Of a DNA stretch of 64,000 nt, positions 20,601-64,000 are shown one piece after another. Within the stretch, counting starts at the first letter, position 1. The number at the start of each line of letters is the position of its first letter. Both the position numbers and the translations under genes were made by a program. Source of the stretch: an uncultured Candidatus Saccharibacteria bacterium (GTDB taxonomy: Bacteria; Patescibacteriota; Minisyncoccia; Phycocordibacterales; UBA5272); the NCBI GenBank assembly GCA_964457775.1, contig CAYWEW010000006.1:10805-74804 (forward strand). Reading direction: 5' to 3'. The notes below the pieces were generated by a model that worked only from the letters and a program-made list of their open reading frames with translations, searched no databases and had not been told where the DNA came from.

Positions 20601-21476
20601 GATTCTGAATATTGTTTCATTACTAGACCTATCTACCCAGTTTAGTGTTACTGAGTTAGTGGAAGTAGAAATACCATTAGTAGTAATTGGTTTCTCGATT
20701 ATAGTTGGAACTACAGTAATTTGAGGAATAGTTACAGATTTGACTGGTGAATAGGAACATAAATCACCGTTACATACTTTGATTTTATAATTATAAATAA
20801 TACCAGGCTCAACACTATAATCAGAATATGATGACATTGTTGTGCTGTTAAGAGTCGTTGGTATTTCGTTTTCAATACCATTGCTGTATTTTATTATTTT
20901 TGTAGAATTTGTAGTACCTACAGTGTTATAATTATTCCATTGTAAAATGACGTAATTTCTTGTTACCCCACCATCTGTCGTTGATGTAGCAATTGTGGCA
21001 CTTAAGGTAGTTGGTGCAATAGGAGCAGTAGGTGTAGTTATCTGTGTTGTTTCTGTTGTAGATGTTAATACTAGTGGATATTCTATGCTTCTTACCTCTT
21101 GACTTTGATTCATTGCACCTGATCCTGAAATATTATTTGTGTTCAAAGTGTTACTAAAAGTAGAAACAACTTGATACGCTAATGATATACCAGTTGGTAA
21201 TTCTGTGACATCAATACAAGAAGATATTGAATCATTGGATAATGTTCCTGAACAGCCTGAGTCAAACTCCTTATAGTATGAGCTGTAATTACTTGTAGAC
21301 TTAATTATAACATAATCACTAAGTGACCTAGCGTCTTTTTGCCAATTAATTTTCGCACTATTTGTTGATGTTTTTTGAGCATTAACATTGCTTATTTGCG
21401 ATGCAAAAGTAATTGAAATTTGACCAAAAGAAACAATTGACGCAGCAAATAATATTACAATAGCTCCTTTTTTCAT
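17664..21476 (-). CDS. large secreted surface protein (1270 aa) with FN3/Ig-like repeats, carboxypeptidase-regulatory-like beta-sandwiches and a C-terminal PG_binding_1-like domain
   Basis: Signal peptide present. The protein has repeated T/S-rich Ig-like modules. The C-terminus GDDVTALQKALKVDGFYVTGPITGYYGKLTRNAVTRFQ matches the peptidoglycan-binding pattern. Confidence 0.75.
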   Translation of the reverse strand: MKKGAIVILFAASIVSFGQISITFASQISNVNAQKTSTNSAKINWQKDARSLSDYVIIKSTSNYSSYYKEFDSGCSGTLSNDSISSCIDVTELPTGISLAYQVVSTFSNTLNTNNISGSGAMNQSQEVRSIEYPLVLTSTTETTQITTPTAPIAPTTLSATIATSTTDGGVTRNYVILQWNNYNTVGTTNSTKIIKYSNGIENEIPTTLNSTTMSSYSDYSVEPGIIYNYKIKVCNGDLCSYSPVKSVTIPQITVVPTIIEKPITTNGISTSTNSVTLNWVDRSSNETIFRIYRSGPASGTSVLISTRSAGNTTYADTNLSPGNYTYSIDACNEVTCSGLVYFSPQVNIPVIPITPTTLNKPNNTKIATSSSLDGIVTIISWDYVTGANAYKIVGGQQGQGSLSTFTSDSNSKIVGVNLPHGTYIYNVLACISETNCSASSTTYIVIPEINTAVINPTIPRPITPSGLFIATSTNGSANFSWSANTGFTYNVKNIITGAQENNKTSPYSLGTLSYGAYKYSVQSCSVSSSTICSDFAPFVQIIIPEPVISKPKSPSRAVANILLTYNNLSNVKLSWIDESNNEDYFKITRTPLWSNAQSLTQGSTQGYRTSQSSTYDDTGLSSGTYTYSISACTNNLGCSDSATASIVIAEAPLRNISGVISLPDSKFVVGARVTAYNDAKSVTAITDIFGKYSLSVPGGTYTLSVLDGNTSNGSWVVDNSIVVVSETDKVVNFSARPLVSTLRTIVKDELGNPVPNIGVVISSNDNIRMNTLTTDATGNTSALLKAGNYIVNTAFIDTLPYVPAEKQTVSINDNETKIITFVLKKKDVLNVFELRGATKFDDGLTTNAHISAWSDNGGSKSTHSSVDGEFSLLLASNDTWHISANKDKDSKSYETTEILITKNTYSSPVSLFFMKNNFESLPQTVSSKIATTETVKVEATDGASITLPPNSTNSSGSIDVQVKPTTEAPSQKSAEVISTVYDITIKNSTGVNVTTLSSEAKITLPYDEDELRAQGISVENLIPSYFDEKIGTWVSVPKFTIDKSKKTFTLFVQHLTRFALIASADTTAPSSPTNIVTDAVTPTDVKITWNNPQNDFHHAKVYRSEKIGSYGDLIAAEVFSSSFIDKTYSIIGKTYYYTVRAVDTAGNESSNGNQIATTVLGDKFASKNKSNSLALPPGQVSTGQITRKLLFGSKGDDVTALQKALKVDGFYVTGPITGYYGKLTRNAVTRFQNYYKEEILIPNGYKTGTGIVGEATRKKINEIIASSNL

Positions 21477-34023: not shown

Positions 34024-34095
34024 GCTCGGTGGGTAGGGATCGAACCTACGACCAATTCGTTAACAGCGAACTGCTCTACCGCTGAGCTACCACCG
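34024..34095 (-). tRNA. tRNA-Asn (anticodon GTT)
   Basis: Minus strand: acceptor TCGGTGG/CCACCGA, D-arm GCTC-AGCGGTA-GAGC, anticodon stem GTTCG/CGAAT with loop CTGTTAA, T-arm GTAGG-TTCGATC-CCTAC, discriminator G. CCA is not encoded. Confidence 0.85.
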
Positions 34096-34285
34096 AATAT
34101 TTTATTATTTACACAATATTTTACTATAAAAGTATTCCACTCCTATTTCAAATGTATTCATAATAATACACAAAAAAGTGATTTTTTGCAAGAAGAATTT
34201 TTGTGTATAAGTTAAGCAAGATAAAATTATGAAAATAAAAATCCCTGCATTTTGCAGAGATTTTTAGTGATTATTCACACATTAA

Positions 34286-48112: not shown

Positions 48113-51100
48113 TTATTCTTCGGCTTTAATACACCCTAAATCCTTAATTCTATCTCTTGTTAATTTGTCTGCTTCACCTGTAACTGTAAGACTGTTGTCC
48201 TCCTGGAACTTTTTAACTGCTTTTTTTGTTATATTTAAGAAGTTGCCAGTTACTTTAGTGTTGAAGTATCCTTGCTTTCGGAGATAATACTGTAATTGTG
48301 ACACTTCACCGTTAGTATTATTATCTCTTTTACCATATAACATTTTACTTTTCATGTTAGTACACATTGATTCAGTAAAAGCGCCGAGTACCATGCCATG
48401 ATTTATGTTTCCAGAATTAACAAGCGCGAGAGTATTGTCATTGTAAAGTGTTCCGACATTACCACCTCCACCTCTTCTTCGTGTTGGAGTAGTTGTTGAT
48501 TGTTGTGTTGTGGTAGTAGCAGTAGATTCAGTTATAGTGCTTGTGGACGTAGGACTACCATCTGCTCCACCACCAGTCACTGTCGTAGTTGCTACAACAG
48601 AAGGAAGTTCAAAATTTAGAGTTCTTCCTCCTCCTCCTCCACCTGCATTATATCTAAATATTCTAGACATTGTAGTAATCTGAGGTGTTGCAGAATAAGT
48701 AAAATCAGAAGCGTCCCCATTATTTGACAACCTAAAACAGTAAACCGACCCTGGCAATATATCTCCAGTTGAGCGTATTAAGTACTCAATTTCAGTGTAT
48801 TCACCTTCGTAAAGAACCGTAGGACGAGAAAGACTGTTAAAGGTTTGCATTCTTCCTGTTCTAAACACTTTTCCATTTGGAACACTTATTCCACTTGAAT
48901 GTGTTGTTGACGCGCTATCACTTACATATGAAGATGTGTCTATTTTGAAATGTTCATTAGTATAATCACTTGGTCTTGGCACAGCAGTCCATGAAGTACA
49001 AGAACCATATGAGTACTCCAGCTGATAACGTTTATTAATTAATGATGTTGTGTGGTTGGTAACAACGAAACGCAATCTAATTTTGTCTCCAGTAATAAAA
49101 TCACTAGCCATTGGCGTGTTTTCTGCAATATTATAGGTAGCAGATGATTCATCTCCATTGTCTTGTCTTAGACGATAGGAAGTTACAGTTACATTTGATG
49201 CACCCACATTAGGAGTAGAAGGAGATCCTTCAATTGATGAGACTGCGGTATAGACAGTACCGCTCTTGGTAAATACTTTGAAGTAATATGCGGTACTATT
49301 AGATAATCCAGTAGCTATACATGAGTCATAAGTAGATGTAGCTATTGTAGAATCGACACAGGCAACAGTTGCAGATCCTATAATGTCATTTGTTGAGTAT
49401 GTTGCCCCATTAGATGGACTATCAGTAATTGTCTGGGTTGAACGTAGGACTATTACTTGATTAAATGACGGGTTAGATGGAATAGTATAATCAATAGTTG
49501 CTTGAGAGTTGTTTGGGGTAACAGTCAAGTCTTCGAGATTGGTAGATCCCGATTCCTGGGAGCTTGCTGTAGGAACTGTTGGAATCATGATGGATTCAGC
49601 GAATGCTGCGTAGATGTAAGTTGCTCCTGTTGAATTATACCCACTACCATTGTCTCGCGCTTTAAATCCATTAGCAAGAATATCTATTCGTCCGGTTGTC
49701 GTATCATCCGCATTTGATGAGTTAGCGTACAACAAATAGTTTGCCGAGTTGTAACCTGCACGAGTTGTGTCGAATATATTCCAATGCTCTGTTCCACCAT
49801 CAATACGCTTTGTTAAAATATATCTCGGCTTGAATCCTGTATAAACAAAAGCTCCGTCTGAATTTCCATTACCGGTGTAACTTCCGAATTTAGAGTACCC
49901 AGGCACTTCTGACCAAACATAAGCAACATAGGTGTACCCACTAGCGCTAACACCAGTATTACCTCCAAGGTTCAAAACTGAATCAGTTGATGTTGCGTAA
50001 AATCTTGTAGAATCGTTCGTTAGTGAAGCTGCCTGACTAAGAGCTAACCAATATGTTCCTCCTCCAAAATTACTATTCCATGTGTACCAATTCTCTGCGC
50101 CACCGGACCTCGCTTTTACAATAGCAAAATTTGGTGCAGTGCCCAACCCATGACCGACGGTCTTGTTGTCACCATTACCAGAACTTGACCCTGAATATGA
50201 AACAATAGAGAATCCCGCAGTAGGATTAGCTGATACTGTTGAAGTAATGGTTCCTGATGTGTCTGTGGTCGTAGCCCCACTCGCCTTCCAATTCCACGAG
50301 ACAAAGGTGTCTCCATTGAAATTCACACGACCTGACCCAGCGTTATCAGTACCAACAGTAAATCCGTCGGAATTAAACGATGTTAATCCATACCCTGAAG
50401 CTTCTGCTGTTTCAGTATTTGTTGTATCAGATTCAAGATGTTTTCGTGCTCCACGTACAGAATCAATAATATTACTACTTGCTGATGTGTTTCTATCTTT
50501 TATCCAGACTAAATCTGGTTGAAAATCAAGACCTGTTATTGATTGTGTACTTCCCGTCCCCGTATATGTCGCCACATCAAAATACAGGTTAGGTTTTAAA
50601 ATTACCGGGGTTGATAGATTTGCAGTAGAGAGAGATTTGAATCCTTCGGGTGGAGTATAGGTAAATGATTTTTGACCGAAGTTGGCAGTAAAATAATTTC
50701 CTCCACCATACGAAGCCATTGCTGGAACAAAAACACCAGATAAAGAACTAAAGGCAACCCCCTGTGACACTCCATTTTTATAGAAAGTTAGCGTTCCAGC
50801 ATCCATATCTAAAGCTGTTCCAATAACATCACCATTAGTATAGGTGGAGCCATAAGCAGTACCAGAATTACTGGTATACTTTTGCCCATTTTGATCGTAT
50901 GAATAACTTAACGAATCACTTCCAGGGAAATATCCATTGGCATAGGTACTAAGACTTGCAGGAGAGATGCCAACATCAGTTCCAACTGATACAGCTCCAA
51001 TATTAGTTTCCCAGTACCATTTCCCAGAAGAAACACCAATGGTTCCTAATTTTGTTTGACTATTTGCAGTAAGCGCACTAAAACGTAAATTACCAAGAGA

Positions 51101-54100
51101 AAGTGTTCCTGCGCTCAAAGTTAAAGCGTTAAGTGTAGCAAAATTATTAAGAGGAGTATCCGTCACTTGATTGTTGGTAGATGTTATCCCACCGTTTGAA
51201 GCCCAGTTATTTGAATTACCTGAACTGTCTGCGCCGACTTGATTACTATTACTGAAATTCAGACGGAATCCATTATTTCCATATGAGCCAATGTACTTCT
51301 TTGGAATCCAATTGCCTGTCGAGGAAGAAGTCTCTCCGAATGATGCTGGTGTTAACTGTTGTCCATCAATAAAATTAACATCCGATAAATAGCCGTCATA
51401 ATAATGTGCACCTGTAGCTTTTGCAACTTGATGTGATATTGCAGAATTAAAACCTTGTGAATAATTTAAAGCGGGGTAATTTGCAGAAGAGAAGGAAGTT
51501 ATTTGCGTCCCATTAGAAAAGATTTTGACTCTATCCGATGATACGGCTTGAGTTGTGTCCACTGCAAGCACAATATGATACCAAGCAGATGGGTCACGAA
51601 AAACTTGTGTAGTGTTTAGATTACTACTAACTGCAGCATTGTTATAATATTGAATATGGTCATTTAAATCAAAAATAAGTTCATCCGTTGTACCTGGTGC
51701 AGCAAACAATGCTGGATAACCAGACGTCAATTTACTGCGCTTGACCCAACCTGACCATGTAAATTTTTTATTATCAGTTGGAGTAGAAAATGTTCTGTTA
51801 AGATACTGACTCTGCGCACTATCAAACATAAGTGAATTCGTAAGGCTGTCAGTCGTGAAGGTAGAGTCAGATGAGTAAGCAGTACCATAGGAGTTGGTAG
51901 CATAAGCACTATAGTAATAAGTGGTAGAAGTAGCGAGACCAGTAATAGATACAGTGAACACTCCAGTAGTTGTACCTGTACCTGCTGTACAGTTAGTGAT
52001 AGGTGCAGGAGTAGAACCATAACACACCCCACGTGATGTTATGTTAGAACTTCCTATAGTGTCTACTGTTCCACCTATTACTGCAGTTGTTTCTGTTGTC
52101 GATGTTGCTGTAGGAGATGAGAGTGTGGGGAGAGATGGTACTGTTGGGACCATGACAGATTCAGCAAAGGCGGCGTAGATAAATGTGCCACCATTGGTGT
52201 TTAGATATGATATTGATGACCTAATCTTAAAACCATTAGACAAGATATCTCTATCATACGCATGATCAGGACTCTCCCCTTGTGAGAGGTTTGGAAAAAG
52301 TGGATTATAATTCACATTGTATGAGTCTCTTTTTGTATCAATAATATGCCAATCATTTGTAGAATCTGTTCTTTTAATCATTATCCAACGTGGTTTAAAT
52401 CCTGTGTAGATGAATGGTCCATCCGCAGAGCCATTACCAGTATAACTACCAAATTTTGAGTAGCCTTGAACTTCAGCAAATGAGTAAGCAACTAGATCTG
52501 CACCACTAGCTAAAGGTGTAGAGGTTAGGCCAAATGTTGTCGTTGACCATGCCCCACTCCAATTTGATGAACCATTTGATTGTGCTGCTGTTGTTGATAA
52601 ATCAAGATAATAGTCAGCGCCTGTTAATTTTTGATGCCAAACATTCCAGCCTGTAGTACCAACATTGTCTCTAGACTTGAATATCACCATTGTTGGGGTT
52701 GCGTTCAATCCATGACCAACTGTTCCAGTAGAACCAGATCCTGTAAATGTAGCAACAGAGAAACCTGCGGTTTGATTTGCAGAAACAACACTTGTGACAG
52801 TCCCAGAAGTATTTGTTGTTGTGGAATTGCCTGCTTTCCATAGCCAATCAACATAGGTAGCCCCATTTGCGTTATTATCACTATCATTTGCATTAAGGGT
52901 GTACCCATCTGCTGTCGAAGAGAAAGAGTGAAGCGATGGTGCTCCACCATTATATGCTTCATATCCTGTAGTGTTAGAGCTTAGTGACTTACTCCCACCA
53001 AAACCTCGTACAGCATCCTGAAGATAGTGGTTTGTAGAACCACTACGTCCTTTACTCCATATTAAATCAGGCTGAAACACTAATCCTGATTTTGTATACC
53101 CTATTGCTGTGCCCGTACGAGTTACAACATCAAAATGTTGATTTGGTTTTAAAATGGTCGGAGCCGGGAGGTTTGCAGTAGAGAGAGACTTGAATCCTGT
53201 TGGTGGGGTGTAGGAGAAGGACTTTTGACCGAAGTTAAGTGTAGCTGATTCAGTTTCAGCATCAGGATTTACTCTAAAAATCGGGAAATAACCGGTAACA
53301 CTGGAAGATGCGAAAGTATGACCTCCACTATTTGTTACTGGATTACTTCCATTGTTCCATGTTCCATTTTTACCAAACCAAACTTTTCTAAGTGATGGAC
53401 TTACGGCAACCATTATAGTGTCACTTGTAGTATAACTAACACCATCTGATGTAGAGCTACCAGGAATTTTGATATAATCCCCTCCACCATGAGCAATTAC
53501 TGCAGCTGCATCACTACCAGAACCAGCAGATGTTTGAAATATATTTCTATTGGTTTCTATGTCCCAGTCAACAACACCAACTTGGCTTGATGAAATAGTT
53601 CTAGTAGTATTATTTAGTTTTGCTTCAAAATATGTGTCAAAATCTTTTATTGGCATGCTTGCCATAACACCATAAATATTATAGTAGCCACCACCAAGTG
53701 AGGAAGTTAAATTACCCTTAGTTAATGAGAGCGAGGAAGATCTCTGAAGTGGGTTTAATGTTGCAAAGTTATTAAATGGAGTATCAATAAATTGATTCGT
53801 TGTTGAACTCATACTACCGTTCGTTGTCCATGTATTTGCTGTAGTGTGTGTAGAGTCAATTGGTGCAGTATCAAGACCAAGAGCAGTACTACTACTGAAA
53901 TTAAGATGAAATCCATTTACTCCATAAGTGCCTTGATATGATTTTGGAATCCAGTTGCCAGTGTTACTGTCTGATTTTCCAAAGTAACTTGGAGTAAGAG
54001 CTTGGCCGTCGACGAAGTTAACATCGGCCATGTATACATCGGAGTAATCAGCGGAATCCATTTTAGAAATATAATGGGCGTTCGCAGCATTAATACCACC

Positions 54101-55654
54101 TGATGCATTCTGTGTTGGGTTGTTGGTGGTTTCGAAAGATGTTTCTTCTACACCATTTACATATATTCTGACTCTTGAATTTGCGGTAGAGGTTGCTGAA
54201 TCATAGACAACAATAATATGTTGCCAGGTTGAAGGATCTCTAAACACTTTGTTTGTTTTTCTCCATGTTGTATTGTATCCACTAACAGAAAGATTATCTC
54301 CTGAAACAAAACCAACTCTTGTAAAGGAATCGTTGTTATTTGCGCTATACCCAAGAAATATTGACTCACCTCCTGCTGGAGTAGTTCTGTTTTTCTTTAC
54401 CCATCCACTCCATGTCCATTTTTTATTATCCGTTGGTGTAGAAAATGTCCTATTCAAATACTGACTACTTGCACTATCAAACATAATGGAGTTCGTGAGA
54501 CCTTCTGTTGTAAAAACCCCATCCGCAGAAGTAGATGTACCGTATGAGTTCGTTGCATATGAACGATAAAAATATGTAGTGGATGTTGCAAGGTTAGACA
54601 AAGTCATACTAAAGTCTCCAGTTGCTGTACCACCTTCTGCAACACAGTTAGTTGGGTAACGAGTTGTTCCATAACAAATACCACGAGATGTAATTGATGC
54701 TCCTCCAATTGATATGAGAGAACCACTGAATGTAGCTGATGATTCTGCAACATAAGAAACCGACGTCGATGTCGCAAGTACTGCTAGGTTAGAGTCTGGT
54801 GTAAGGTAACGAATAATTACAATACCAGAACCACCGTCACCACGCGTTGGGAAATATCCTCCTCCTCCACCACCGGTACCACTTGTTCCATTCTGACCTT
54901 CAGCACCTCCCCCTCCTGTACCACCTGAAGAACCTCCTGTGTTTCTTCCACCACCACCACCTGCATACCATGTCGCCGTGCCACTTATTGAAGATGAAAG
55001 TCCATCTCCTCCGTAACCAGAAGAGTCTGTACTTCCTGCCTCACCTGCACCACCACCACCACCTGCTTGTGGACTTCCCGGTGAACCACCGTTATTTCCT
55101 TGCCCAGATGTCCCCGATCCAGCAGAACCACCATAACCTGCACCACCACCCGATCCACCGTTACGACCAACTTCTGCTCCGTCATTTCCACCTCCACCTC
55201 CACCACCAAGTGCAGTAATATTACCAAGAACGGAACTGCTTCCATTAGTACCATACCAGTTAGGTGAATTATCGCCCCCCATACCACCACCACCCACAAC
55301 CACCGTGTATGAGTTTCCTGAATAAAAAGTAGTTGTCCCATTTCCGGTCAACATTCCTCCACCTCCACCACCTCCACCACCACCAGTACCACCACCACCT
55401 CCACCAGCAACAACTAAATAATCGATAGAAGTAACATTAAGAGGAATTGTAAAGGTTGTAGTACCAGTTGATGTAAATGTTTGCACTGTATATCCACCTG
55501 CATATGAAGGAGAAGACCGAGGATTTATTCCACTAGAATCTGTATATGTTACTGTTTGTGCAAAAGTAACAAAGGGAGTAGAAAAAAATAAGAAAAGGAA
55601 AAAAAGGAAAAATTTCCTTACATAACGATTTCGAGAAAATAACCCTGTATCCAT
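48113..55654 (-). CDS. giant secreted surface protein (2513 aa) with poly-Gly tracts, two ~790-aa paralogous modules and a C-terminal PG_binding_1-like domain
   Basis: Signal peptide present. Modules repeat (FDSA.SQYLNRTFSTPTDNKK.TWSGWVK..., FGQKSF.YTPP.GFKSLSTANL, YSKFGSYTGNG..DG.F.YTGFKPR, IYAAFAES.M.PTVP). The C-terminus GEVSQLQYYLRKQGYF...LNITKKAVKKFQEDNSLTVTG matches the peptidoglycan-binding pattern. Confidence 0.8.
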   Translation of the reverse strand: MDTGLFSRNRYVRKFFLFFLFLFFSTPFVTFAQTVTYTDSSGINPRSSPSYAGGYTVQTFTSTGTTTFTIPLNVTSIDYLVVAGGGGGGTGGGGGGGGGGMLTGNGTTTFYSGNSYTVVVGGGGMGGDNSPNWYGTNGSSSVLGNITALGGGGGGGNDGAEVGRNGGSGGGAGYGGSAGSGTSGQGNNGGSPGSPQAGGGGGAGEAGSTDSSGYGGDGLSSSISGTATWYAGGGGGRNTGGSSGGTGGGGAEGQNGTSGTGGGGGGYFPTRGDGGSGIVIIRYLTPDSNLAVLATSTSVSYVAESSATFSGSLISIGGASITSRGICYGTTRYPTNCVAEGGTATGDFSMTLSNLATSTTYFYRSYATNSYGTSTSADGVFTTEGLTNSIMFDSASSQYLNRTFSTPTDNKKWTWSGWVKKNRTTPAGGESIFLGYSANNNDSFTRVGFVSGDNLSVSGYNTTWRKTNKVFRDPSTWQHIIVVYDSATSTANSRVRIYVNGVEETSFETTNNPTQNASGGINAANAHYISKMDSADYSDVYMADVNFVDGQALTPSYFGKSDSNTGNWIPKSYQGTYGVNGFHLNFSSSTALGLDTAPIDSTHTTANTWTTNGSMSSTTNQFIDTPFNNFATLNPLQRSSSLSLTKGNLTSSLGGGYYNIYGVMASMPIKDFDTYFEAKLNNTTRTISSSQVGVVDWDIETNRNIFQTSAGSGSDAAAVIAHGGGDYIKIPGSSTSDGVSYTTSDTIMVAVSPSLRKVWFGKNGTWNNGSNPVTNSGGHTFASSSVTGYFPIFRVNPDAETESATLNFGQKSFSYTPPTGFKSLSTANLPAPTILKPNQHFDVVTRTGTAIGYTKSGLVFQPDLIWSKGRSGSTNHYLQDAVRGFGGSKSLSSNTTGYEAYNGGAPSLHSFSSTADGYTLNANDSDNNANGATYVDWLWKAGNSTTTNTSGTVTSVVSANQTAGFSVATFTGSGSTGTVGHGLNATPTMVIFKSRDNVGTTGWNVWHQKLTGADYYLDLSTTAAQSNGSSNWSGAWSTTTFGLTSTPLASGADLVAYSFAEVQGYSKFGSYTGNGSADGPFIYTGFKPRWIMIKRTDSTNDWHIIDTKRDSYNVNYNPLFPNLSQGESPDHAYDRDILSNGFKIRSSISYLNTNGGTFIYAAFAESVMVPTVPSLPTLSSPTATSTTETTAVIGGTVDTIGSSNITSRGVCYGSTPAPITNCTAGTGTTTGVFTVSITGLATSTTYYYSAYATNSYGTAYSSDSTFTTDSLTNSLMFDSAQSQYLNRTFSTPTDNKKFTWSGWVKRSKLTSGYPALFAAPGTTDELIFDLNDHIQYYNNAAVSSNLNTTQVFRDPSAWYHIVLAVDTTQAVSSDRVKIFSNGTQITSFSSANYPALNYSQGFNSAISHQVAKATGAHYYDGYLSDVNFIDGQQLTPASFGETSSSTGNWIPKKYIGSYGNNGFRLNFSNSNQVGADSSGNSNNWASNGGITSTNNQVTDTPLNNFATLNALTLSAGTLSLGNLRFSALTANSQTKLGTIGVSSGKWYWETNIGAVSVGTDVGISPASLSTYANGYFPGSDSLSYSYDQNGQKYTSNSGTAYGSTYTNGDVIGTALDMDAGTLTFYKNGVSQGVAFSSLSGVFVPAMASYGGGNYFTANFGQKSFTYTPPEGFKSLSTANLSTPVILKPNLYFDVATYTGTGSTQSITGLDFQPDLVWIKDRNTSASSNIIDSVRGARKHLESDTTNTETAEASGYGLTSFNSDGFTVGTDNAGSGRVNFNGDTFVSWNWKASGATTTDTSGTITSTVSANPTAGFSIVSYSGSSSGNGDNKTVGHGLGTAPNFAIVKARSGGAENWYTWNSNFGGGTYWLALSQAASLTNDSTRFYATSTDSVLNLGGNTGVSASGYTYVAYVWSEVPGYSKFGSYTGNGNSDGAFVYTGFKPRYILTKRIDGGTEHWNIFDTTRAGYNSANYLLYANSSNADDTTTGRIDILANGFKARDNGSGYNSTGATYIYAAFAESIMIPTVPTASSQESGSTNLEDLTVTPNNSQATIDYTIPSNPSFNQVIVLRSTQTITDSPSNGATYSTNDIIGSATVACVDSTIATSTYDSCIATGLSNSTAYYFKVFTKSGTVYTAVSSIEGSPSTPNVGASNVTVTSYRLRQDNGDESSATYNIAENTPMASDFITGDKIRLRFVVTNHTTSLINKRYQLEYSYGSCTSWTAVPRPSDYTNEHFKIDTSSYVSDSASTTHSSGISVPNGKVFRTGRMQTFNSLSRPTVLYEGEYTEIEYLIRSTGDILPGSVYCFRLSNNGDASDFTYSATPQITTMSRIFRYNAGGGGGGRTLNFELPSVVATTTVTGGGADGSPTSTSTITESTATTTTQQSTTTPTRRRGGGGNVGTLYNDNTLALVNSGNINHGMVLGAFTESMCTNMKSKMLYGKRDNNTNGEVSQLQYYLRKQGYFNTKVTGNFLNITKKAVKKFQEDNSLTVTGEADKLTRDRIKDLGCIKAEE

Positions 55655-55951: not shown

Positions 55952-58900
55952 TTATGGTGTGGTACTTGTAGATTCTGTAGTAGGGGTAGTTGTTTCGGGA
56001 AGAACTTGCTCTGTCGTGGTCCATGTGTCCGCTCCATCTGTAACTACTTCTGAAGATGAGGAAGTGACGGTTTCTGTTGTTGTACTATTTGCATCTCCTG
56101 CTACCACTGGTTCTTGAATAAGAATATTCGTTGTTGTGCCTGTTCCTTGGTTTACGTTTACGTTGTTATTGAGAAGTGATTTTAATTGTTCTTCTGTAAC
56201 ACAAGTACTTCCTACACAGACTTTTTCTTCCGCATAAACATTTTTCGCAAAGATAGTATCAATATAAGCTACCACCGCAGTAACCTTAACTGCAATGAAG
56301 GAGTTGATGACTTCGATACCGTTAGCTAGAGCTGAGGTGATTGTTGAAGTAATTGATGTAGGAGTGGAGTCTGTTGAGGTAGCATAGGTGATTTCCTCCA
56401 GTCCTGCAAGATTAGATACAGTGACAGTACGATTGGTATTTTCGATAAGGACGAGGACTGTTGAGGTAGACGATGAATCCACTGCGTCAGAGAGTGCTCG
56501 GCCGAGCACTCTACCACTTGTTATTTGTTTGGTAGCATATCCTTCTGTTGTAGTAGAAAGAGTAAGATAGTCCCCTTTCTTGATTATGCCGTTTTCATTA
56601 GTAACTTTTACTGGAACACGACCAGTTAATGCTACGGGGATACTATATCCTTCAGTTGATGATGAGAAGGTTGCACCTAGTATGATACCAGCGTTAGTAG
56701 TAACAATACCTAATATATCATCACCTCCTTCTGCACTCTTGATGCCTGACATATCATAGGATGTACCCGTTGTTACACTTGATCCATGAGGATTCCATGC
56801 ATAAGTTGAGGAGGAGAATGATACGACAGTACCAGCATCGAGTGATTCTGATGACTTGAATACTTCTGCAATGTCAGCAGCACTATCAATATCAAAGCCT
56901 GTTGCTCTAATGCGTCCTGATACACGCATGATTTCGTCCCCTATTTGTGTGCCATCATTTCCTATTCCAACAAGACCAAGTGAGGTAATTGTCATTGCTC
57001 CTGAGGTTGCATTAGATGTATTAATCACACTATTAATTGACGAAATTTGAGATTGTAAATTTGTGGTACTAGCATTAATGACAGAAAGCATAGATGCAAA
57101 AGTAGATGAGGCTTCTGCGTAATTAGAGGTAACTATGTTGGCAAGTGCATATATTGATGATGATGCGACTTCATTATTATTATTAACTGTATTAGTTAAT
57201 ATAAACAACGAAGAAGAAGCTTGTAGAACGTTTAGATTCAATTCTTGAAGAGCTTTGATTGTAGGAACAACTAGAGATGCGTAATCAACACCATAAACAT
57301 CCCCGAGAGTCTCGTCATTATAAACAGTACCAACAGAGTCAGGGAACAATGACTGTACTTCCTGAGCAATGAACCCAGTATGAGTTGATGTTTGGTTGCG
57401 TCCTGACACACCATTCCAATTAAATGTTACAGGTCTTAAATTCATAACATTACTTAATATTGAACTACTAAGGTTAGTTATGTTCTGCTTAAGTCTTTCA
57501 TCTGATGTACAGTTAGTAGCCCCTGTTCCACTACCGATAGTACAAGTAGTACCAGAACCAACAATTGTTACATTACCAGTAGAAGCGATTGAGAACATTG
57601 ATACCCCAGTTGAGGAAGATATATTAAGCGGGGATAAACCTGATGTGGATTGTACATTTAACATGGATGTAGCTGAGGATGTACCTATTGATGTTTTTCC
57701 ATCGTTATTAATAGCAAATTTTGTTATGTCATTCTTTTGGAAATCTGCAAACTTACCACTGAAGCTTCCACCATTTGCTCCAATGTCCATATATAATGCA
57801 GTCCCAGTGTAACTAGAAATTTCTTGATAGATTTGTGCAAGATACGGCGCAGTTGTAACTGTGGAAGAGTACAGTCTCAAAATATCACCATCTGTTGTTC
57901 CAGTATTCTCCCCATAAAGTGCTGCTGGGGCAGATAACTCACCTCCAAGACCAGTTGTGAAGGCTTGGATACCAAATGTGTGACCTGATGTCCTTATACC
58001 AGTATTGATACCATAGCTATTTGTTCCAGCATCAGATACGACTTCGATACCACGAACAGTATTTGATAGAGCTGTGTTATCTATGGTTCTTATAATCTGA
58101 CCTACTGCTGTGTTAGCAACTGATGTAGGAATATTATTTACAACAAATCTATTACCCACCTGCACCCCTCCTGCACTTGGGTTGAAGGTGAAGTTACCAT
58201 GTATGCCTGCGATTGATGTTGTAGCTCCATCTATTGCATTATTTACTGATGTATCGAAGAACATCTTAGCGAGAGAGAACGGGGTTGTGGTTCCGAACAT
58301 GAGTGTTGTTGCAGTAGTTGTAGCAAGAGTTGAAGTACCTGTTACACCGAATGTGCCGGAAACACTCAGAAGGTAATTAGGGGTAGATGAACCAATTCCT
58401 ACATTACCATTAGAAGTAATTGTCATTCTATCTGTAATTGAACCGCCAACACTTCTTGTTTGAAATGTAAGCATGCCACCTATTCCAGTTGCAGAATCAG
58501 ATATTGTACCAGTAGATGAAGAGACGATTCCTGTAGCTTGAACGTATTGATTTGTTGCTCCAACATAGCCGTAACTATTTATATTAAGAAGAGCGTCACC
58601 TGAAGTAATAGCTGTTGGGGAAGTAACAGTACCTCGAGATTTACGAGAGTTTATAGCGTAAGGAACAGCATCATCAACCCCTTTTGAAAATCTAACTTCA
58701 CCAGCCTTCCATCTAGTGTTCTCGATACTTGATACTGTGAGACCAAGTTCATTTGCAGCAGCACGAAATAGACCAAGATTACTATCATTAAAATACAGAG
58801 CCGGGGAACCTGCAGAACCAGGTTGCATAACTCCAACTTGAAGTACAACTCGTAAATATTCAGTGGCACTTTGACTGAGAGAAATTGCACTGTTACTTGA

Positions 58901-61900
58901 TAAGTTCAAAAAAGTTCCATCCCAAGACATTCCATTTGCAGGAGAAGAAGCAAATGAGTATGATGGAAGTGAATTAGATCCATTAGGTACAAGAATTTGA
59001 CCACTTCCAATTGTAAGTGATCCTGCTGGCGTTGATGACCCTATGCCTACATTCCCATTCGCGAGAATAGAGAAAAGTGATGAACCGGATGAAGAAGCTA
59101 CTTCGAATGGATTCGTAGAACCTCTACCACGTAATGTGAGTGTCGCTCCTGGTGTAGTAGTTCCGATACCTACATTCACTGCATCTGTTGAAGTACCTCC
59201 TAATATGATTGCGTTTGACATACCGACACGAGCGTCTTTACCTATTGCCCAGGCGTTAGTAAGAGCAGATGTTGATGCTACTGTTTCTGCACGAGAGGCT
59301 TGATAGCCAATGAAGCCAGAATAAGAATCGATGACAGAGCGTTGGTCTACAGTTATTCCATCTCCTCGACCGGATTGATGACCAAAAGCAATATTATAGC
59401 TTCCTCCACTATTATAATTTAAACTACTATAACCTTGAGCAAGATTGAACGATCCTGATATGTTTCCAGAAAGAGCACCCACCCCTTGTGCGATATTATA
59501 TTGACCGGATACATTTGAATAAAGAGCACTACCACCTAATGCAATGTTATTACTACCAGTCATACGATTGGTACTGTTTCCATACATTGCCTGGTAACCA
59601 ATCGCTGTGTTAAAGGATGCTGTAGAACTGTTTTGAAGTGCTAAATTTCCTATCGCGACGTTCCATGATCCAGTAGTGTTTAAATTAAGAGCGTTCGCAC
59701 CTTGTGCAATATTATTTGAACCTGTTGTATTCGAATAAAGAGCACTATTTCCAACTGCAAAGTTATCACCTCCTGACATAAGATCGGTACTACTACCATA
59801 CATTGCTTGATATCCAATTGCTGTGTTATTTGATGCAGTAGAACTGTAACGAAGTGCTTGATAACCTTGAGCAAGATTATAATTACCTGTTGTATTTGAG
59901 TAAAGAGAGAAAAACCCATGCGCAGTGTTACCTACTCCAGTTATATTAGATGAGAGTGCTGAGTTTCCAGCTGCAAAGTTATTCCCACCTGTCATAAGGT
60001 TTGTTGTACTGCCAAACATTGCTGAAGATCCAATTGCTATATTATTAGACGCTGTAGAACTGTACATAATAGCACTAGCACCTAATGCAACATTACTTGC
60101 GCCTGTAGTATTGGAATAAAGAGCACTATACCCTTGCGCAATGTTATATTGACCAGATGTATTTGAGTAGAGAGCGCTATCACCGACAGCAAAGTTACCA
60201 TTACCTGTCATGAAGGATGTACTAGAGCCATAAAGAGCGTTTCTTCCTAGTGCGATATTAAAAAGAAATACTGATGAAGTGCTTATATTTGTTAATGCCC
60301 CATTACCAACCGCAATAGAATTTGATGGTGCAACAGTAGATGAAGGTCCACCATTAATAAATACATTTGCAGAAGTAGAGGTACCGAGGACAAGACCACC
60401 AAGTGAGTTAACAGTAAGGAGGTTGTGTCCGGTAGATGATGCTACGGTGAATGGATTCACCCCATCTCGACCTTGAACAGAGAGAGTTGCAATTGGGGTG
60501 GACGAACCGACCCCTACATTTCCATTTGCGAGAATAGTGAATAGTGTAGCACCAGATGAGGATGCGACTGTTAGTAAATTCTTAGTAGTAGTACCTTGTA
60601 TAAAGAGTGACGAATCCCCTGTTGATGTTCCGATATTAAGTCTATTGTTTCCCGCGTCTGCAAAGAGTAGTGGGTATGTAGAGGTGCCTACGGTTAAATT
60701 GCCGTAAACTGATGAATTATTATGTGACTGGAAACCATTTGATATGGTTAATCCACCCGCAAGAGAAAGACTTCCTTGTGTTGTTATATCATTACGCACA
60801 TGAAGATTGCCTGTCTCAAGAGAATGTACTAAAGCTGAAGTGGTTTCTAATCCCCCTATATCATAAGTTAACATCGTACTAGTCAAATAATTTACTACAT
60901 ATAAATACTTACCAGAGATAGACACCTTAGTAGGAGAATCACCTGTTTGATGATATGAAATAACCCTAGGCGAAGCAGGGTTAGATATATCAACAACCGA
61001 AACACCTCCTGGATTACTTTCAGTAGTAACATATGCATATCTTCCAGAAACAACAACATGAGCAGCATTATTAATACTTACACTTGAAGTAGCGACTGGC
61101 ACTGATGGATTTGATATGTCAATCACAGACAAAGTGTTACTTCCTTTGTTTGCCACATACGCATACCTTCCAGAGACAGCAACAGAACTTGGATTAGACC
61201 CGACAGGTGTCGTGCTTGCGATTGTAGGTTTTGTCGGATTAGAAATATCAATAATAGATAATGTGCTACTACTATAATTAGTAACATATGCATATTTCCC
61301 TGACACATCAACAGAGTTTGGGTTAGTTCCTGTTGTTATTGTAGACACAACACTCAACGAACTCGGATTAGAAATATCAATAATAGACATTGATCTATTA
61401 TCATAATTAGCAACATACGCATACCCACCAGAAATATCTATTGATGTGGGACCCATTCCTGCTGTAGAAAATATCGAGACAGCTGAAAGTGATTTTGGTT
61501 TAGAAATATCAATAACAGTTATATTGTTACTTGAATACGCTGTCACATATGCATATGAACCTGCGATTGCGATAGAGGCAGGTGTCTGAATATTACCACT
61601 TGCATATGTAGAAAGTAACACCGACAAAGAAGGAACCGAAACATCATACCCAGAAAAACTACAACAATTAGAATAAGTAACATACGCATAATTACCTACA
61701 GTAAATACCGCTCTAGGGTTACTTCCTACTGCAGTCGTTGACACCAGTCTCATTCCGATAGTGCTCGTTGCTATATTCTGAATATTTCCATAAACATCTA
61801 ATGCTATTGGAGAAGATGATGACATTGCTATAAATGTCGACGTACCATGTACTGTGAGTTTTGAATTATTTGCTTGAGTTGAAGTACCAATCAAAGTGCC

Positions 61901-64000
61901 TCCATTCGCAAGCACTTTGAATAATGACGATGTTGCACCACCTGCTGATGTAGTAGATGCAATATCAAAGAGTGAGGAGGTGCCTCCGAACGATGATTGG
62001 ACAGAGAACTTAGCAGATGGTGTGGTTGTACCAATCCCGACATTTCCATTTACAACATCGAGTACCATAGTACCTAGTGTTTGATAATTTGCCCCACCAA
62101 GATAAACCTTGTCATCACTACCCACACGGAGTACTCCAAGATAACTATTATTAGCATTATTTGGTGCTATTATCGCCTTATTATTTGGAATAACGATTTC
62201 ATTTCCTTGGAAAGCACTACCTGAATTGCTGAGAAGGTCTACACCAAGAGAAATTGCTCTACCGCTTGTCAGTGATCCAAGTTGTGTGACGGAGTATGCA
62301 CCAGAACTAGAACCATATCCGAAATAACTTGACTTGATCAAATCAACACCACCAACAGCAGATATCCAAGTACTAGTAGAGATTGTTATCGCACCTGTTT
62401 GGGAAACATTGAATAGTGACACTCCTGTTGACGAAGCCACATTAAATGGATTAACCCCTACTCTTCCTTGTACATTAAATGAGTAAGAAGATGAAGTTGC
62501 ATTAATACCCGCTACTGTACCATTGTCTAAGAGTGATGATGTTCCTAGTGTTGTAGATGTGAGCCAACGAGTAGCGAATCCTAATTCTCCTCCTGTTACA
62601 CCTGCACCAATACCTCCTTGTATACCGAGAGATGACGTAGATACCCAGAGTGTAGATGTACCTGTTGACCAGAGTAGTTGACCGAGTGTGCCAGCAGTAT
62701 TGACAGAATCCATGAAGTTACCAGTGAGACGGAGGCCTCCTTGGACTTGGAGTTTTTGGGATGGGGTCGTCGTTCCAATACCAATATTGCCATTCGGGAA
62801 GTTTACAGAAGTTATTGCAGTAGATCCTGGCGTACGATAAATTTCAACAGCAGAAACTGGATTAGCTTTTGAATCATCAACAGTTTCAAGCGCCCAGAGA
62901 TCATTTGAATTTATTCTTGCACGCCAATACTTAGAGCCGGGAGTAGTATCCGGTCGGTACCAGTAAATTGAGGGTGAATAAGCACCTGGGCCTTCTATTG
63001 TTAGACCAACATTTTGTACATTTACATGAAGTGGAGATAGAGGTGTCGTCACCCCAATCCCCACATACCCACTTGTATTCCAAATACCAGATCCAGGGAA
63101 GTATGTATTACCAGTTACAGTTAATCCACCCGTAGTAGAAGCATTAGTAAGTGTAGTCTTACCAGAGACATCTAAAGTAGCAGAGAAGTTAGCAGAGGTA
63201 CCTGAGAATGTTCCCCCAGTAAAGGATGTTCCTGTAATAGCTCCTAGGTTAGCAAGTGTTGAATAGAGTGTGGTAGCAGTTAAAGCAGTAGATGAAGCAA
63301 GCGTAGATGATGCATATGTTGTAGTGATTCTGTTTGCTGTGATATCTCCTGTGGTAGTAAGGGTTCCTACGGTGAGATTTGATGTGGAAGCTGTAGTAGC
63401 AGAGAGGTTAGAGATCGTAGTAGTAGCAAGTGATACTGTGCCTGTTGCTGTAAGATTCCCTGTTGTAAGAGCGAGGAAGTTAGGAGATGCACTAACTGAA
63501 AGTACATTCCCGGCCCATGAGAGATTAGTGCCGGACGATATACGTGATGATGGTGTTGTGTAGAAGGTAAAGAGGTTAGAAGTAGAAGCAGTGAGAGGGA
63601 TAGAATAATTTAATGATGGTGCAACAGAGAATGTATGAGTACCTCCTCCTACGTTAGTTGATACAAATATATCAAGACCTGTTCCATTTGTTGTTGTAGC
63701 AAATGTTTGAGCGCCAACAGAGCCATTAAGAGAAGCAACAACACCAGAAGCACCAGCGTCAGTTCCACATGAGAATTGTCCTGTGGTAGTACTGTAGAGT
63801 AGTTTTTGTGTAGTAAGGTCACACGCAATGAGACCTGCACCTTTAAGTGTAGAACTGAAGTATCCATTGGTAGTAGTGGAGTTAATAAAGTCTGTTGAGG
63901 TAGCGTAAATACTGTTAGTGGTAATTGTTGTTGCAGTAGCATTAGTAGCTGTGAGATTGGTTGAGTTTAGAGTAGTAACTGTTGATGAAGAAGAGAATAG
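55952..64000 (-). CDS. giant tail-fibre-like surface protein (more than 2680 aa, 5' end outside the window) with Hep_Hag-like repeats and an internal peptidase-S74 intramolecular-chaperone domain
   Basis: The frame upstream of the ORF-track start (63064) stays open to position 64000. NxAxGxxAL..NTTG repeats are present. S74 signature: SDERLKQNI...LRPVTFNW...HTGFIAQEVQ...GVDY..L (SDERLK lies on the minus strand at about 57486-57503). Confidence 0.8.
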   Translation of the reverse strand, partial: LFSSSSTVTTLNSTNLTATNATATTITTNSIYATSTDFINSTTTNGYFSSTLKGAGLIACDLTTQKLLYSTTTGQFSCGTDAGASGVVASLNGSVGAQTFATTTNGTGLDIFVSTNVGGGTHTFSVAPSLNYSIPLTASTSNLFTFYTTPSSRISSGTNLSWAGNVLSVSASPNFLALTTGNLTATGTVSLATTTISNLSATTASTSNLTVGTLTTTGDITANRITTTYASSTLASSTALTATTLYSTLANLGAITGTSFTGGTFSGTSANFSATLDVSGKTTLTNASTTGGLTVTGNTYFPGSGIWNTSGYVGIGVTTPLSPLHVNVQNVGLTIEGPGAYSPSIYWYRPDTTPGSKYWRARINSNDLWALETVDDSKANPVSAVEIYRTPGSTAITSVNFPNGNIGIGTTTPSQKLQVQGGLRLTGNFMDSVNTAGTLGQLLWSTGTSTLWVSTSSLGIQGGIGAGVTGGELGFATRWLTSTTLGTSSLLDNGTVAGINATSSSYSFNVQGRVGVNPFNVASSTGVSLFNVSQTGAITISTSTWISAVGGVDLIKSSYFGYGSSSGAYSVTQLGSLTSGRAISLGVDLLSNSGSAFQGNEIVIPNNKAIIAPNNANNSYLGVLRVGSDDKVYLGGANYQTLGTMVLDVVNGNVGIGTTTPSAKFSVQSSFGGTSSLFDIASTTSAGGATSSLFKVLANGGTLIGTSTQANNSKLTVHGTSTFIAMSSSSPIALDVYGNIQNIATSTIGMRLVSTTAVGSNPRAVFTVGNYAYVTYSNCCSFSGYDVSVPSLSVLLSTYASGNIQTPASIAIAGSYAYVTAYSSNNITVIDISKPKSLSAVSIFSTAGMGPTSIDISGGYAYVANYDNRSMSIIDISNPSSLSVVSTITTGTNPNSVDVSGKYAYVTNYSSSTLSIIDISNPTKPTIASTTPVGSNPSSVAVSGRYAYVANKGSNTLSVIDISNPSVPVATSSVSINNAAHVVVSGRYAYVTTESNPGGVSVVDISNPASPRVISYHQTGDSPTKVSISGKYLYVVNYLTSTMLTYDIGGLETTSALVHSLETGNLHVRNDITTQGSLSLAGGLTISNGFQSHNNSSVYGNLTVGTSTYPLLFADAGNNRLNIGTSTGDSSLFIQGTTTKNLLTVASSSGATLFTILANGNVGVGSSTPIATLSVQGRDGVNPFTVASSTGHNLLTVNSLGGLVLGTSTSANVFINGGPSSTVAPSNSIAVGNGALTNISTSSVFLFNIALGRNALYGSSTSFMTGNGNFAVGDSALYSNTSGQYNIAQGYSALYSNTTGASNVALGASAIMYSSTASNNIAIGSSAMFGSTTNLMTGGNNFAAGNSALSSNITGVGNTAHGFFSLYSNTTGNYNLAQGYQALRYSSTASNNTAIGYQAMYGSSTDLMSGGDNFAVGNSALYSNTTGSNNIAQGANALNLNTTGSWNVAIGNLALQNSSTASFNTAIGYQAMYGNSTNRMTGSNNIALGGSALYSNVSGQYNIAQGVGALSGNISGSFNLAQGYSSLNYNSGGSYNIAFGHQSGRGDGITVDQRSVIDSYSGFIGYQASRAETVASTSALTNAWAIGKDARVGMSNAIILGGTSTDAVNVGIGTTTPGATLTLRGRGSTNPFEVASSSGSSLFSILANGNVGIGSSTPAGSLTIGSGQILVPNGSNSLPSYSFASSPANGMSWDGTFLNLSSNSAISLSQSATEYLRVVLQVGVMQPGSAGSPALYFNDSNLGLFRAAANELGLTVSSIENTRWKAGEVRFSKGVDDAVPYAINSRKSRGTVTSPTAITSGDALLNINSYGYVGATNQYVQATGIVSSSTGTISDSATGIGGMLTFQTRSVGGSITDRMTITSNGNVGIGSSTPNYLLSVSGTFGVTGTSTLATTTATTLMFGTTTPFSLAKMFFDTSVNNAIDGATTSIAGIHGNFTFNPSAGGVQVGNRFVVNNIPTSVANTAVGQIIRTIDNTALSNTVRGIEVVSDAGTNSYGINTGIRTSGHTFGIQAFTTGLGGELSAPAALYGENTGTTDGDILRLYSSTVTTAPYLAQIYQEISSYTGTALYMDIGANGGSFSGKFADFQKNDITKFAINNDGKTSIGTSSATSMLNVQSTSGLSPLNISSSTGVSMFSIASTGNVTIVGSGTTCTIGSGTGATNCTSDERLKQNITNLSSSILSNVMNLRPVTFNWNGVSGRNQTSTHTGFIAQEVQSLFPDSVGTVYNDETLGDVYGVDYASLVVPTIKALQELNLNVLQASSSLFILTNTVNNNNEVASSSIYALANIVTSNYAEASSTFASMLSVINASTTNLQSQISSINSVINTSNATSGAMTITSLGLVGIGNDGTQIGDEIMRVSGRIRATGFDIDSAADIAEVFKSSESLDAGTVVSFSSSTYAWNPHGSSVTTGTSYDMSGIKSAEGGDDILGIVTTNAGIILGATFSSSTEGYSIPVALTGRVPVKVTNENGIIKKGDYLTLSTTTEGYATKQITSGRVLGRALSDAVDSSSTSTVLVLIENTNRTVTVSNLAGLEEITYATSTDSTPTSITSTITSALANGIEVINSFIAVKVTAVVAYIDTIFAKNVYAEEKVCVGSTCVTEEQLKSLLNNNVNVNQGTGTTTNILIQEPVVAGDANSTTTETVTSSSSEVVTDGADTWTTTEQVLPETTTPTTESTSTTP

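Follow-up and report, generated by a model that had tools for sequence, protein, structure and literature searches.

Members of the Candidate Phyla Radiation (CPR; Patescibacteria) are believed to spend their lives attached to other microbes, and the machinery by which they attach is largely obscure. Two unrelated kinds of intramolecular chaperone known from bacteriophage fibres bear on the locus described here: the S74 chaperone of endosialidases, tail spikes and fibres, as in K1F endoNF and T5 pb1, and domain D4 of the phi29 appendage protein gp12 (MEROPS G2), a trimerisation autochaperone (bioRxiv 10.1101/216911). S74 domains also terminate the chromosomally encoded mosaic adhesive trimer (MAT) fibres of the S74 subgroup in Bdellovibrio bacteriovorus, where Bd3182 cleaves at S782 and the substitution S782A blocks cleavage (PMC10769870), and a V-G-G/N-x-x-x-P-x-x-x-L capping loop has been reported both for these fibres and for the eukaryotic protein MYRF (PMC10769870). 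Here we analyse a giant fibre-like protein encoded in a stretch of 64,000 nucleotides, hereafter the window, from an uncultured Candidatus Saccharibacteria bacterium (assembly GCA_964457775.1, contig CAYWEW010000006.1, positions 10,805 to 74,804 of the forward strand), in which an internal S74 chaperone is followed by a G2-like domain. Judging from sequence, we consider it probable that this is a giant CPR fibre with two unrelated self-cleaving chaperones in tandem, which would be cut off after folding outside the cell. The identities, order and boundaries of the domains, the conservation of their motifs and the recurrence of the arrangement in other genomes are established by the comparisons below; the proteolytic steps are predicted from them.

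A complete S74 chaperone inside a giant open reading frame

The open reading frame (ORF) contains zero stops from 63997 to 55955 on the minus strand, ends in a TAA at 55952-55954 and is still open at the edge of the window. Because the start given for it in the ORF list, 63064, is merely the first GTG of this open frame, the protein must exceed 2681 residues and its N-terminus must lie outside the window, which bears out the description in the first-pass annotation of a giant surface-fibre-like protein of more than 2680 residues. An alternative genetic code lengthening the ORF was ruled out, the stop being TAA and TGA serving as a stop elsewhere in the window. The features that carry the argument are the following.

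55952..64000, minus strand: giant fibre-like ORF, at least 2681 codons plus the TAA stop, N-terminus beyond the window
57332..57505, minus strand: Peptidase_S74 core, residues 2165-2222 (Ser2165 codon at 57503-57505, Lys2170 codon at 57488-57490)
57026..57283, minus strand: predicted long alpha-helix, the S74 helical stalk, residues 2239-2324, about 85 residues, outside the Pfam model
56876..57025, minus strand: beta-rich linker, residues 2325-2374, 50 residues (VGIGNDGTQIGDEIMRVSGRIRATGFDIDSAA), containing VGIGNDGTQIGDEIMRVSGRIRA
56438..56875, minus strand: putative Peptidase_G2-like autochaperone domain, residues 2375-2520 (Asp2375 codon at 56873-56875, Glu2378 codon at 56864-56866)

The S74 signature is genuine and far beyond chance: PF13884 matches the whole protein at E 1.3e-16 (61.1 bits against a cutoff of 22) over positions 1-57 of its 58, and the C-terminal fragment alone at E 2.2e-17 (63.5 bits), with Ser2165 of the motif SDERLK falling on profile position 1. 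A single-sequence phmmer search of the PDB missed all of the solved S74 domains (sole match 3gqh, E 0.18), so profiles were needed. The family profile places CTSDERLKQNI on SDRRIK of 6f45 (a phage fibre), SDERLK of 8jov and ADLRAK of 7dc3 (the ICA domain of MYRF), with Ser2165 and Lys2170 on the family positions in each; since SDERLK aligns in this way with solved S74 domains, the misaligned dyad that would have spoken against the assignment was not found. Among the collected S74 relatives the catalytic serine is kept in 57 of 58 and the lysine in 58 of 59.

The chaperone extends well past the Pfam model. An AlphaFold2 (AF2) model of the last 555 residues of the protein places a long helix at fragment residues 113-198, with a predicted local distance difference test (pLDDT) score of 70-84, and a heptad-like ASS..L repeat within it is kept across the family; the monomer model as a whole, with an overall pLDDT of 50, was unusable for fold search. 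As this helix corresponds to the stalk of canonical S74 chaperones, the S74 chaperone proper reaches to about residue 2325, or some 160 residues. By its sequence, then, the domain is a bona fide intramolecular chaperone, complete with dyad, beta core and helical stalk, and it is predicted to cleave itself immediately before Ser2165. The domain is internal, as the first-pass annotation had proposed, rather than placed at the extreme C-terminus of the precursor. Two details of that annotation needed correction: the serine codon lies two bases from the 57501-57503 given there, and the stretch after the domain, put at about 420 residues, amounts to 516 residues after Ser2165 or 459 after the end of the Pfam match.

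A Peptidase_G2-like domain follows the S74 stalk

Early hints of a second autochaperone were weak (the phmmer match to 3gqh mentioned above, and PF11962 at E 7e-4). BLASTP against the C-terminal domain of phi29 gp12 gave E 1e-6 and aligned SGRIRA...AADIAEVF of the window protein with NGRIKA...WSDFAEYF of the phage protein, and the linker upstream aligns with the gp12 segment ...LNGRIKARDTVTGGNTWS, directly preceding the cleavage site known there. With PF11962 the window domain reaches 22.5 bits in isolation (E 8.6e-5; cutoff 25) and 15.6-19.5 bits in longer fragments; among its relatives, 15 of 56 match the model (E<0.01), the best at E 7e-8, and the CPR domain profile itself pulls out proteins with precomputed PF11962 matches. 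An hhalign comparison of the CPR alignment (A2) with an alignment of G2 domains (A4) returned a probability of 99.15% (E 4e-19), A4 being made up of the phi29 gp12 C-terminal domain, Bacillus proteins annotated as 'peptidase G2 autoproteolytic cleavage domain' and short G2 forms, five of which had been found with the CPR profile.

Structure prediction points the same way. Built on a 56-sequence alignment, the AF2 model of the domain reached a pLDDT of 84.9 and has the tandem beta-tulip fold of gp12 D4. Foldseek placed 3suc, the pre-mature form of phi29 gp12, at the top of the PDB matches (E 1.1e-4), with 3gqh_A at a TM-score of 0.55 per target; the remaining PDB matches were beta-tulip capsid decoration proteins, and the top match in BFVD was a 'Preneck appendage protein' (E 2.6e-10).

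The phi29 gp12 precursor is reportedly cut between S691 and D692 (2009 structure paper of Xiang and co-workers), residue numbers that were checked on the translated gene. Marking the scissile bond with a slash, A/D2375-I-A-E2378-V-F of the window protein aligns with S/D-F-A-E-Y-F of phi29, so that Asp2375 and Glu2378 fall on D692 and E695, and the last residue of the linker forms one side of the predicted bond between Ala2374 and Asp2375. Across the G2-like relatives the aspartate is kept in 223 of 244 and the glutamate in 240 of 249 (91-96%). Taken together, sequence and model support a Peptidase_G2 autochaperone of the type of D4 in phi29 gp12, divergent and marginal by the Pfam cutoff, which may cleave between Ala2374 and Asp2375. 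It is not terminal, 161 residues following it.

The C-terminal end and the search for a payload or membrane anchor

Those 161 residues comprise a small domain, here termed ct, and a tail.

56162..56437, minus strand: ct domain, residues 2521-2612, about 90 residues, with an invariant Cys pair (VCVGSTCV)
55955..56161, minus strand: Ser/Thr-rich low-complexity C-terminal tail, residues 2613-2681, from the translation

The Cys pair, C264 and C269, is invariant in alignment A2, and a local hidden Markov model (HMM) of ct matches the window protein at E 2.5e-29; no Pfam family matched the domain at E<=10, nor did it belong to a known family. The window sequence (...AVVAYIDTIFAKNVYAEEKVCVGSTCVTEEQLKSLL) represents a variant form of ct that the relative P0021 has as well. 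The majority form reads ...NANGVAITNIKSLASANGTWSIDENGRIVAKxLCLEDLCIDKNTL, and the two forms agree solely in the Cys pair and the L..LL after it. Tails of the relatives are rich in Ser, Thr and Pro, and four of them contain a Bact_surface_Ig-like (immunoglobulin-like) domain.

The first-pass annotation had suggested that the C-terminal stretch might be a toxin-delivery payload. What stands there instead is the remainder of the S74 chaperone, the G2-like domain, the Cys-pair domain and the low-complexity tail. When the last 555 residues were compared with Pfam, PHROGs, NCBIfam and PDB sequences, no toxin or enzyme domain came up, matches downstream of the S74 domain being confined to G2 or weak tail-fibre ones, and no toxin domain was found in the relatives either; a toxin or enzyme payload was therefore dropped. 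A MYRF-like transmembrane anchor downstream of the S74 domain was likewise ruled out: no convincing transmembrane helix was found after it, the sole hydrophobic stretch there (residues 2561-2579, IEVINSFIAVKVTAVVAYI) being borderline and containing Glu and Lys, and most relatives are polar at the equivalent position.

Recurrence in CPR lineages

All close homologues of the window protein come from Patescibacteria/CPR, which agrees with the earlier label of 'episymbiont'. A profile of the G2-like and ct domains together retrieved 17,326 representatives of 50%-identity clusters at E<=1e-3 and 4,981 at E<=1e-10. Many of these representatives are 2,000-7,800 residues long and have the module close to their C-terminus; both domains are present in most of the best-matching clusters. 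Relatives are encoded by 500 stretches of the GTDB species genomes, and all but a few of the 80 loci covered by our counts are labelled Patescibacteria/CPR. Local HMMs found S74 followed by the G2-like domain in the same ORF at 16 of these 80 loci, with ct after them in all 16, and others carried two G2-like domains or one alone. The 150 best representatives include 19 with the order S74, G2-like, ct and three more that combine S74 with a G2-like domain (~15%), and S-x4-K is kept in 22 of the 23 S74 domains among them.

The closest relatives have 511-608 residues from the S74 domain to the C-terminus. Other close S74 relatives show the canonical terminal placement, with 96-154 residues to the C-terminus, an S74-S74 tandem or a C-terminal hydrophobic tail, and with placements so varied the chaperone modules have evidently been shuffled freely. 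Two tandem S74 domains occur in each of P0025 and P0028, and in P0035 a hydrophobic tail at the C-terminus (FIFLLIFGTAMLLYM) lies ~150 residues from the S74 domain, a layout like that of MYRF in a prokaryotic sequence. Two G2-like domains lie 300-450 residues apart within one ORF at nine loci (L005, L007, L011, L017-L019, L042, L049 and L074), the upstream copy covering only ~100 profile residues; two G2-like domains also score in 45 of the 150 representatives, some of which may be split matches of a single domain.

Complete homologous ORFs have a hydrophobic segment, signal or transmembrane, near the N-terminus. Several also begin with a helix-turn-helix (HTH) domain of cytoplasmic type: MerR in L056 (E 1e-12), HTH_23 in L014 (E 7e-9) and HTH_22/23 in L006, with weak N-terminal HTH_17 matches in L057 and L035 and no Pfam HTH match in L069. 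A hydrophobic segment follows the N-terminal region in L057, L035, L056, L069 and, weakly, L006, with the huge extracellular part next; the hydrophobicity scan called no such segment after the HTH of L014.

The fibre upstream of the S74 domain

Upstream of the S74 serine the following features were recognised, together with Ser/Thr-rich stretches.

60878..61780, minus strand: LVIVD-repeat beta-propeller, PF08309 at E 1.5e-37 in 5 stretches, six YAYV blades with a period of ~43
59342..60259, minus strand: period-17 repeat block N-x-A-x-G ... NTTG, ~18 copies, residues ~1247-1552
57506..58279, minus strand: conserved domain right before the S74 serine, residues 1907-2164, 258 residues

The protein had been described as made of Hep_Hag or tail-fibre-like N.A.G..AL..NTTG repeats. 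The repeats are real, matching the repeat pattern at residues 1247-1535 with a spacing of 17 or 21 residues; since they are confined to residues ~1247-1552, however, the protein is not made of them. PF05658 (Hep_Hag) did not match the whole protein at E<=0.01, and the repeat block alone had no Pfam match at E<=10, for want of which a Hep_Hag/YadA identity was discarded. The YAYV blades of the propeller lie at residues 770 to 987 (the TIGR02276 match is weak), and a propeller in mid-fibre is an odd insert for a trimeric fibre. Five copies of GN(V/I)G(I/V)G(T/S)(T/S)TPxxxL, at residues 403, 651, 1159, 1648 and 1864, fit the capping-loop consensus of PMC10769870 in their form GNVGIGxxTPxxxL.

The closest genome relative (L002) has a sole long co-linear match with the window protein, over residues 1907-2609 at 52% identity, and only short motif matches upstream of residue 1907. 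The protein therefore reads as a mosaic rather than a uniform Hep_Hag array, in which a conserved 258-residue domain and the C-terminal module are joined to variable upstream parts. The domain at 1907-2164, which also aligns in P0002, P0006 and P0025, is a candidate for the distal tip that S74 cleavage would expose.

Genomic context

The same window encodes rpoC, mreB, a class II aminoacyl-tRNA synthetase, an M50 protease and histidine kinases, housekeeping company that confirms the chromosomal location claimed for the giant protein. A tblastn search with the 555-residue fragment against 50,697 phage genomes gave zero matches, and scanning IMG/VR by pattern with the family profile yielded no confirmed relative. 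A phage or prophage origin was rejected on these two grounds, the housekeeping surroundings and the lack of a phage match.

Directly downstream on the same strand, beyond an AT-rich spacer of 297 bp, lies a second giant ORF (48113-55654, minus strand, 2513 residues) with a hydrophobic N-terminus, Gly_rich_2, two DUF7483 domains (E 1e-213), SPRY and a C-terminal PG_binding_1; its product may be a cell-wall-bound partner of the fibre. Another large wall-associated protein, of 1270 residues, is encoded at 17664-21476 (minus strand) and contains CarboxypepD_reg, a ChitinaseA_N-like domain and PG_binding_1. The sole Rfam gathering-level match in the window is a tRNA at 34025-34096 (minus strand), and from about 28 to 34 kb the GC content is raised and only short ORFs are present.

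Proposed maturation and alternative explanations

The S74 chaperone and gp12 D4 are both chaperones of trimerisation and are removed by cleavage when a correct trimer has formed, and we therefore propose a register-setting role for the composite module. As complete homologues start with a signal or transmembrane segment, the fibres are probably anchored by their N-termini with the C-terminus distal, as in Bdellovibrio MAT, and the window protein is most likely an N-terminally anchored trimeric fibre whose tandem chaperones are later shed. To go by those homologues, it would be exported and held at the cell surface by its N-terminus. Because there are no ATP-driven chaperones outside the cell, the C-terminal 517-residue module would trimerise first, bringing the three chains into register, and folding of the fibre would then proceed from its C-terminus towards its N-terminus. 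A correct trimer would arm the S74 dyad, and a cut between Thr2164 and Ser2165 would shed a 53.9 kDa fragment and bare the tip domain at 1907-2164; the G2-like site may additionally cut between Ala2374 and Asp2375, which would turn what is shed into one piece of 22.2 kDa and one of 31.8 kDa. The S74 domain would be internal, on this reading, because a second, unrelated folding domain of phage type follows it. A broader version of the idea, to which we give some credence while doubting it, holds that CPR bacteria possess a general extracellular folding system built from serial, heterologous self-cleaving chaperones (S74-G2, G2-G2 and S74-S74), in which S74-G2 proteins would undergo two-step programmed proteolysis, each cut checking the trimer register of a different segment and leaving a mature fibre and two released fragments, of which that made up of G2, ct and tail may be functional.

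Several points weigh against a fibre that sheds two self-cleaving chaperones. Both proteolytic steps are argued from motif conservation and homology. The fibre is presumed to be trimeric, and the monomer model of the 555-residue module is poor (pLDDT 50). Export and anchoring of the window protein are likewise drawn by analogy, its own N-terminus lying outside the window. The G2-like domain narrowly misses the Pfam cutoff, its model has moderate Foldseek TM-scores with phi29 gp12 (0.45-0.55), and the profile-profile comparison is partly circular through the five short G2 proteins in A4, although these have independent PF11962 matches. A self-sufficient S74 chaperone gives no evident reason for a second one. 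Release of phi29 D4 is, moreover, said to need ATP, reportedly according to the 2009 phi29 gp12 structure paper of Xiang and co-workers, and since ATP would be lacking extracellularly a release of that type cannot apply here.

In an alternative that we regard as unlikely but not negligible, the S74 domain alone is catalytically active, and the G2-like domain would be a beta-tulip domain for trimerisation or adhesion that does not cleave, being shed together with the S74 chaperone or acting as a terminal binding knob before shedding. Beta-tulip domains are general trimer and protein-interaction modules, most of which, the capsid decoration proteins, do not cleave; besides its sub-threshold Pfam score, the window domain lacks the insertion of ~50 residues present in phi29 gp12 and is followed by conserved sequence, in some relatives by Ig-like domains, unlike a disposable C-terminal chaperone. 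What such a domain would leave unexplained is the retention of the phi29 cleavage motif D-x-A-E-x-F/Y in 91-96% of about 245-250 relatives, a motif common to proteins that pass PF11962 outright (among them P0061, P0071 and P0075-77, with YADLAERY). If neither domain cleaved, both would be retained as trimerisation nodes and the C-terminal 517 residues would form the mature distal end. Such nodes would fit the internal occurrence of g2-g2, s74-s74 and g2-s74-g2-g2 series in relatives, where they could set the register, and the Ig-like domains in some tails suggest a functional distal end; the catalytic Ser/Lys and Asp/Glu are almost invariant, however, and, to our knowledge, every S74 domain tested so far that keeps SDxxxK cleaves itself; among these are that of a chromosomal bacterial fibre and the internal one of MYRF, for which this is established. 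We consider this second alternative improbable.

The delivery of a C-terminal effector or toxin against a host cell, freed by S74 autoproteolysis, would account for a ct domain and tail without known function, and a 53.9 kDa fragment would indeed be freed were the S74 domain active. The two chaperone domains nevertheless explain ~70% of the fragment, the searches described above detected no toxin or enzyme domain in the last 555 residues, and relatives add Ig-like domains only, so that we judge an effector very improbable. Fusion of an S74-terminated fibre gene to a downstream gene by an assembly or frameshift artefact has nothing specific in its favour beyond the general proneness to error of giant repetitive genes in metagenome assemblies. 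Against it, the frame is continuous over 8 kb, the S74 helical stalk passes unbroken into the linker, and independent assemblies, drawn from many samples and lineages, repeat both the order of the domains and their spacing; such an artefact is scarcely credible. The tandem of self-cleaving chaperones remains our preferred reading.

Comparison with known systems

The literature searched held no account of an S74 domain in series with a G2-type domain, nor of the prevalence of the G2-like and ct domains at the ends of giant CPR proteins; as far as our searches reach, a tandem of two unrelated autoproteolytic chaperones is thus undescribed, each domain being of a known kind. The finding allows the C-terminal ends of giant CPR surface proteins, a very large and mostly unannotated class, to be annotated in a testable way, linking them mechanistically to phage tail-spike assembly, and opens a way into the question of how CPR cells construct very long surface fibres. 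The tandem is also a natural system for asking why more than one intramolecular chaperone is needed, how fibres of several thousand residues fold outside the cell without ATP, and which of the exposed tip domains serve recognition between episymbiont and host.

With the phage S74 chaperones (K1F endoNF, T5 pb1, 6f45 and 8jov) the window protein shares a match to the full profile, a Ser-x4-Lys that opens the domain, a beta-rich fibre bearing VG(I/N)G..P...L cap motifs before it and a long helix after it. It differs in that 516 residues follow the serine, compared with about 100-155 in canonical cases (the CPR proteins P0027, P0031 and P0036 included), and in being encoded on a cell chromosome, with no match in the cultured phage genomes or IMG/VR searched. 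The likeness to phi29 gp12 D4 (3gqh and 3suc) lies in the profile-profile match of 99.15%, the position of D-x-A-E-x-F, the predicted fold and the upstream 'GRI(K/R)A' strand. Unlike D4, the window domain is without the insertion, has Ala rather than Ser before the aspartate, as do most G2 members, and stands in a non-terminal position directly after an S74 chaperone, just under the Pfam cutoff; given its presumed extracellular site in a bacterium, ATP-dependent release is also unlikely for it.

The remaining two systems show how an S74 domain may serve proteins of cellular organisms. Bdellovibrio MAT fibres are, like the window protein, long, mosaic, phage-like surface fibres encoded on the chromosome of a bacterium that lives (in the CPR case, presumably lives) on other bacteria, with the S74 motif SDxxxK and capping loops; they start with a signal peptide and a conserved beta-rich N-terminal domain of ~130 residues, are ~1000 residues long and end in S74, in contrast to a protein of more than 2681 residues that continues with the G2-like domain, ct and tail. 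In MYRF (7dc3) the S74 domain is internal too, and self-cleavage parts a large N-terminal from a large C-terminal piece, which indicates that S74 tolerates a large C-terminal extension; there, however, a transmembrane helix follows and a DNA-binding trimer is freed, whereas no convincing transmembrane helix follows in the window protein and its upstream part is a fibre. The giant CPR protein represents neither a new principle nor a toxin system: its closest whole-protein analogue is the Bdellovibrio MAT fibre, and the closest precedent for its internal S74 domain is eukaryotic MYRF.

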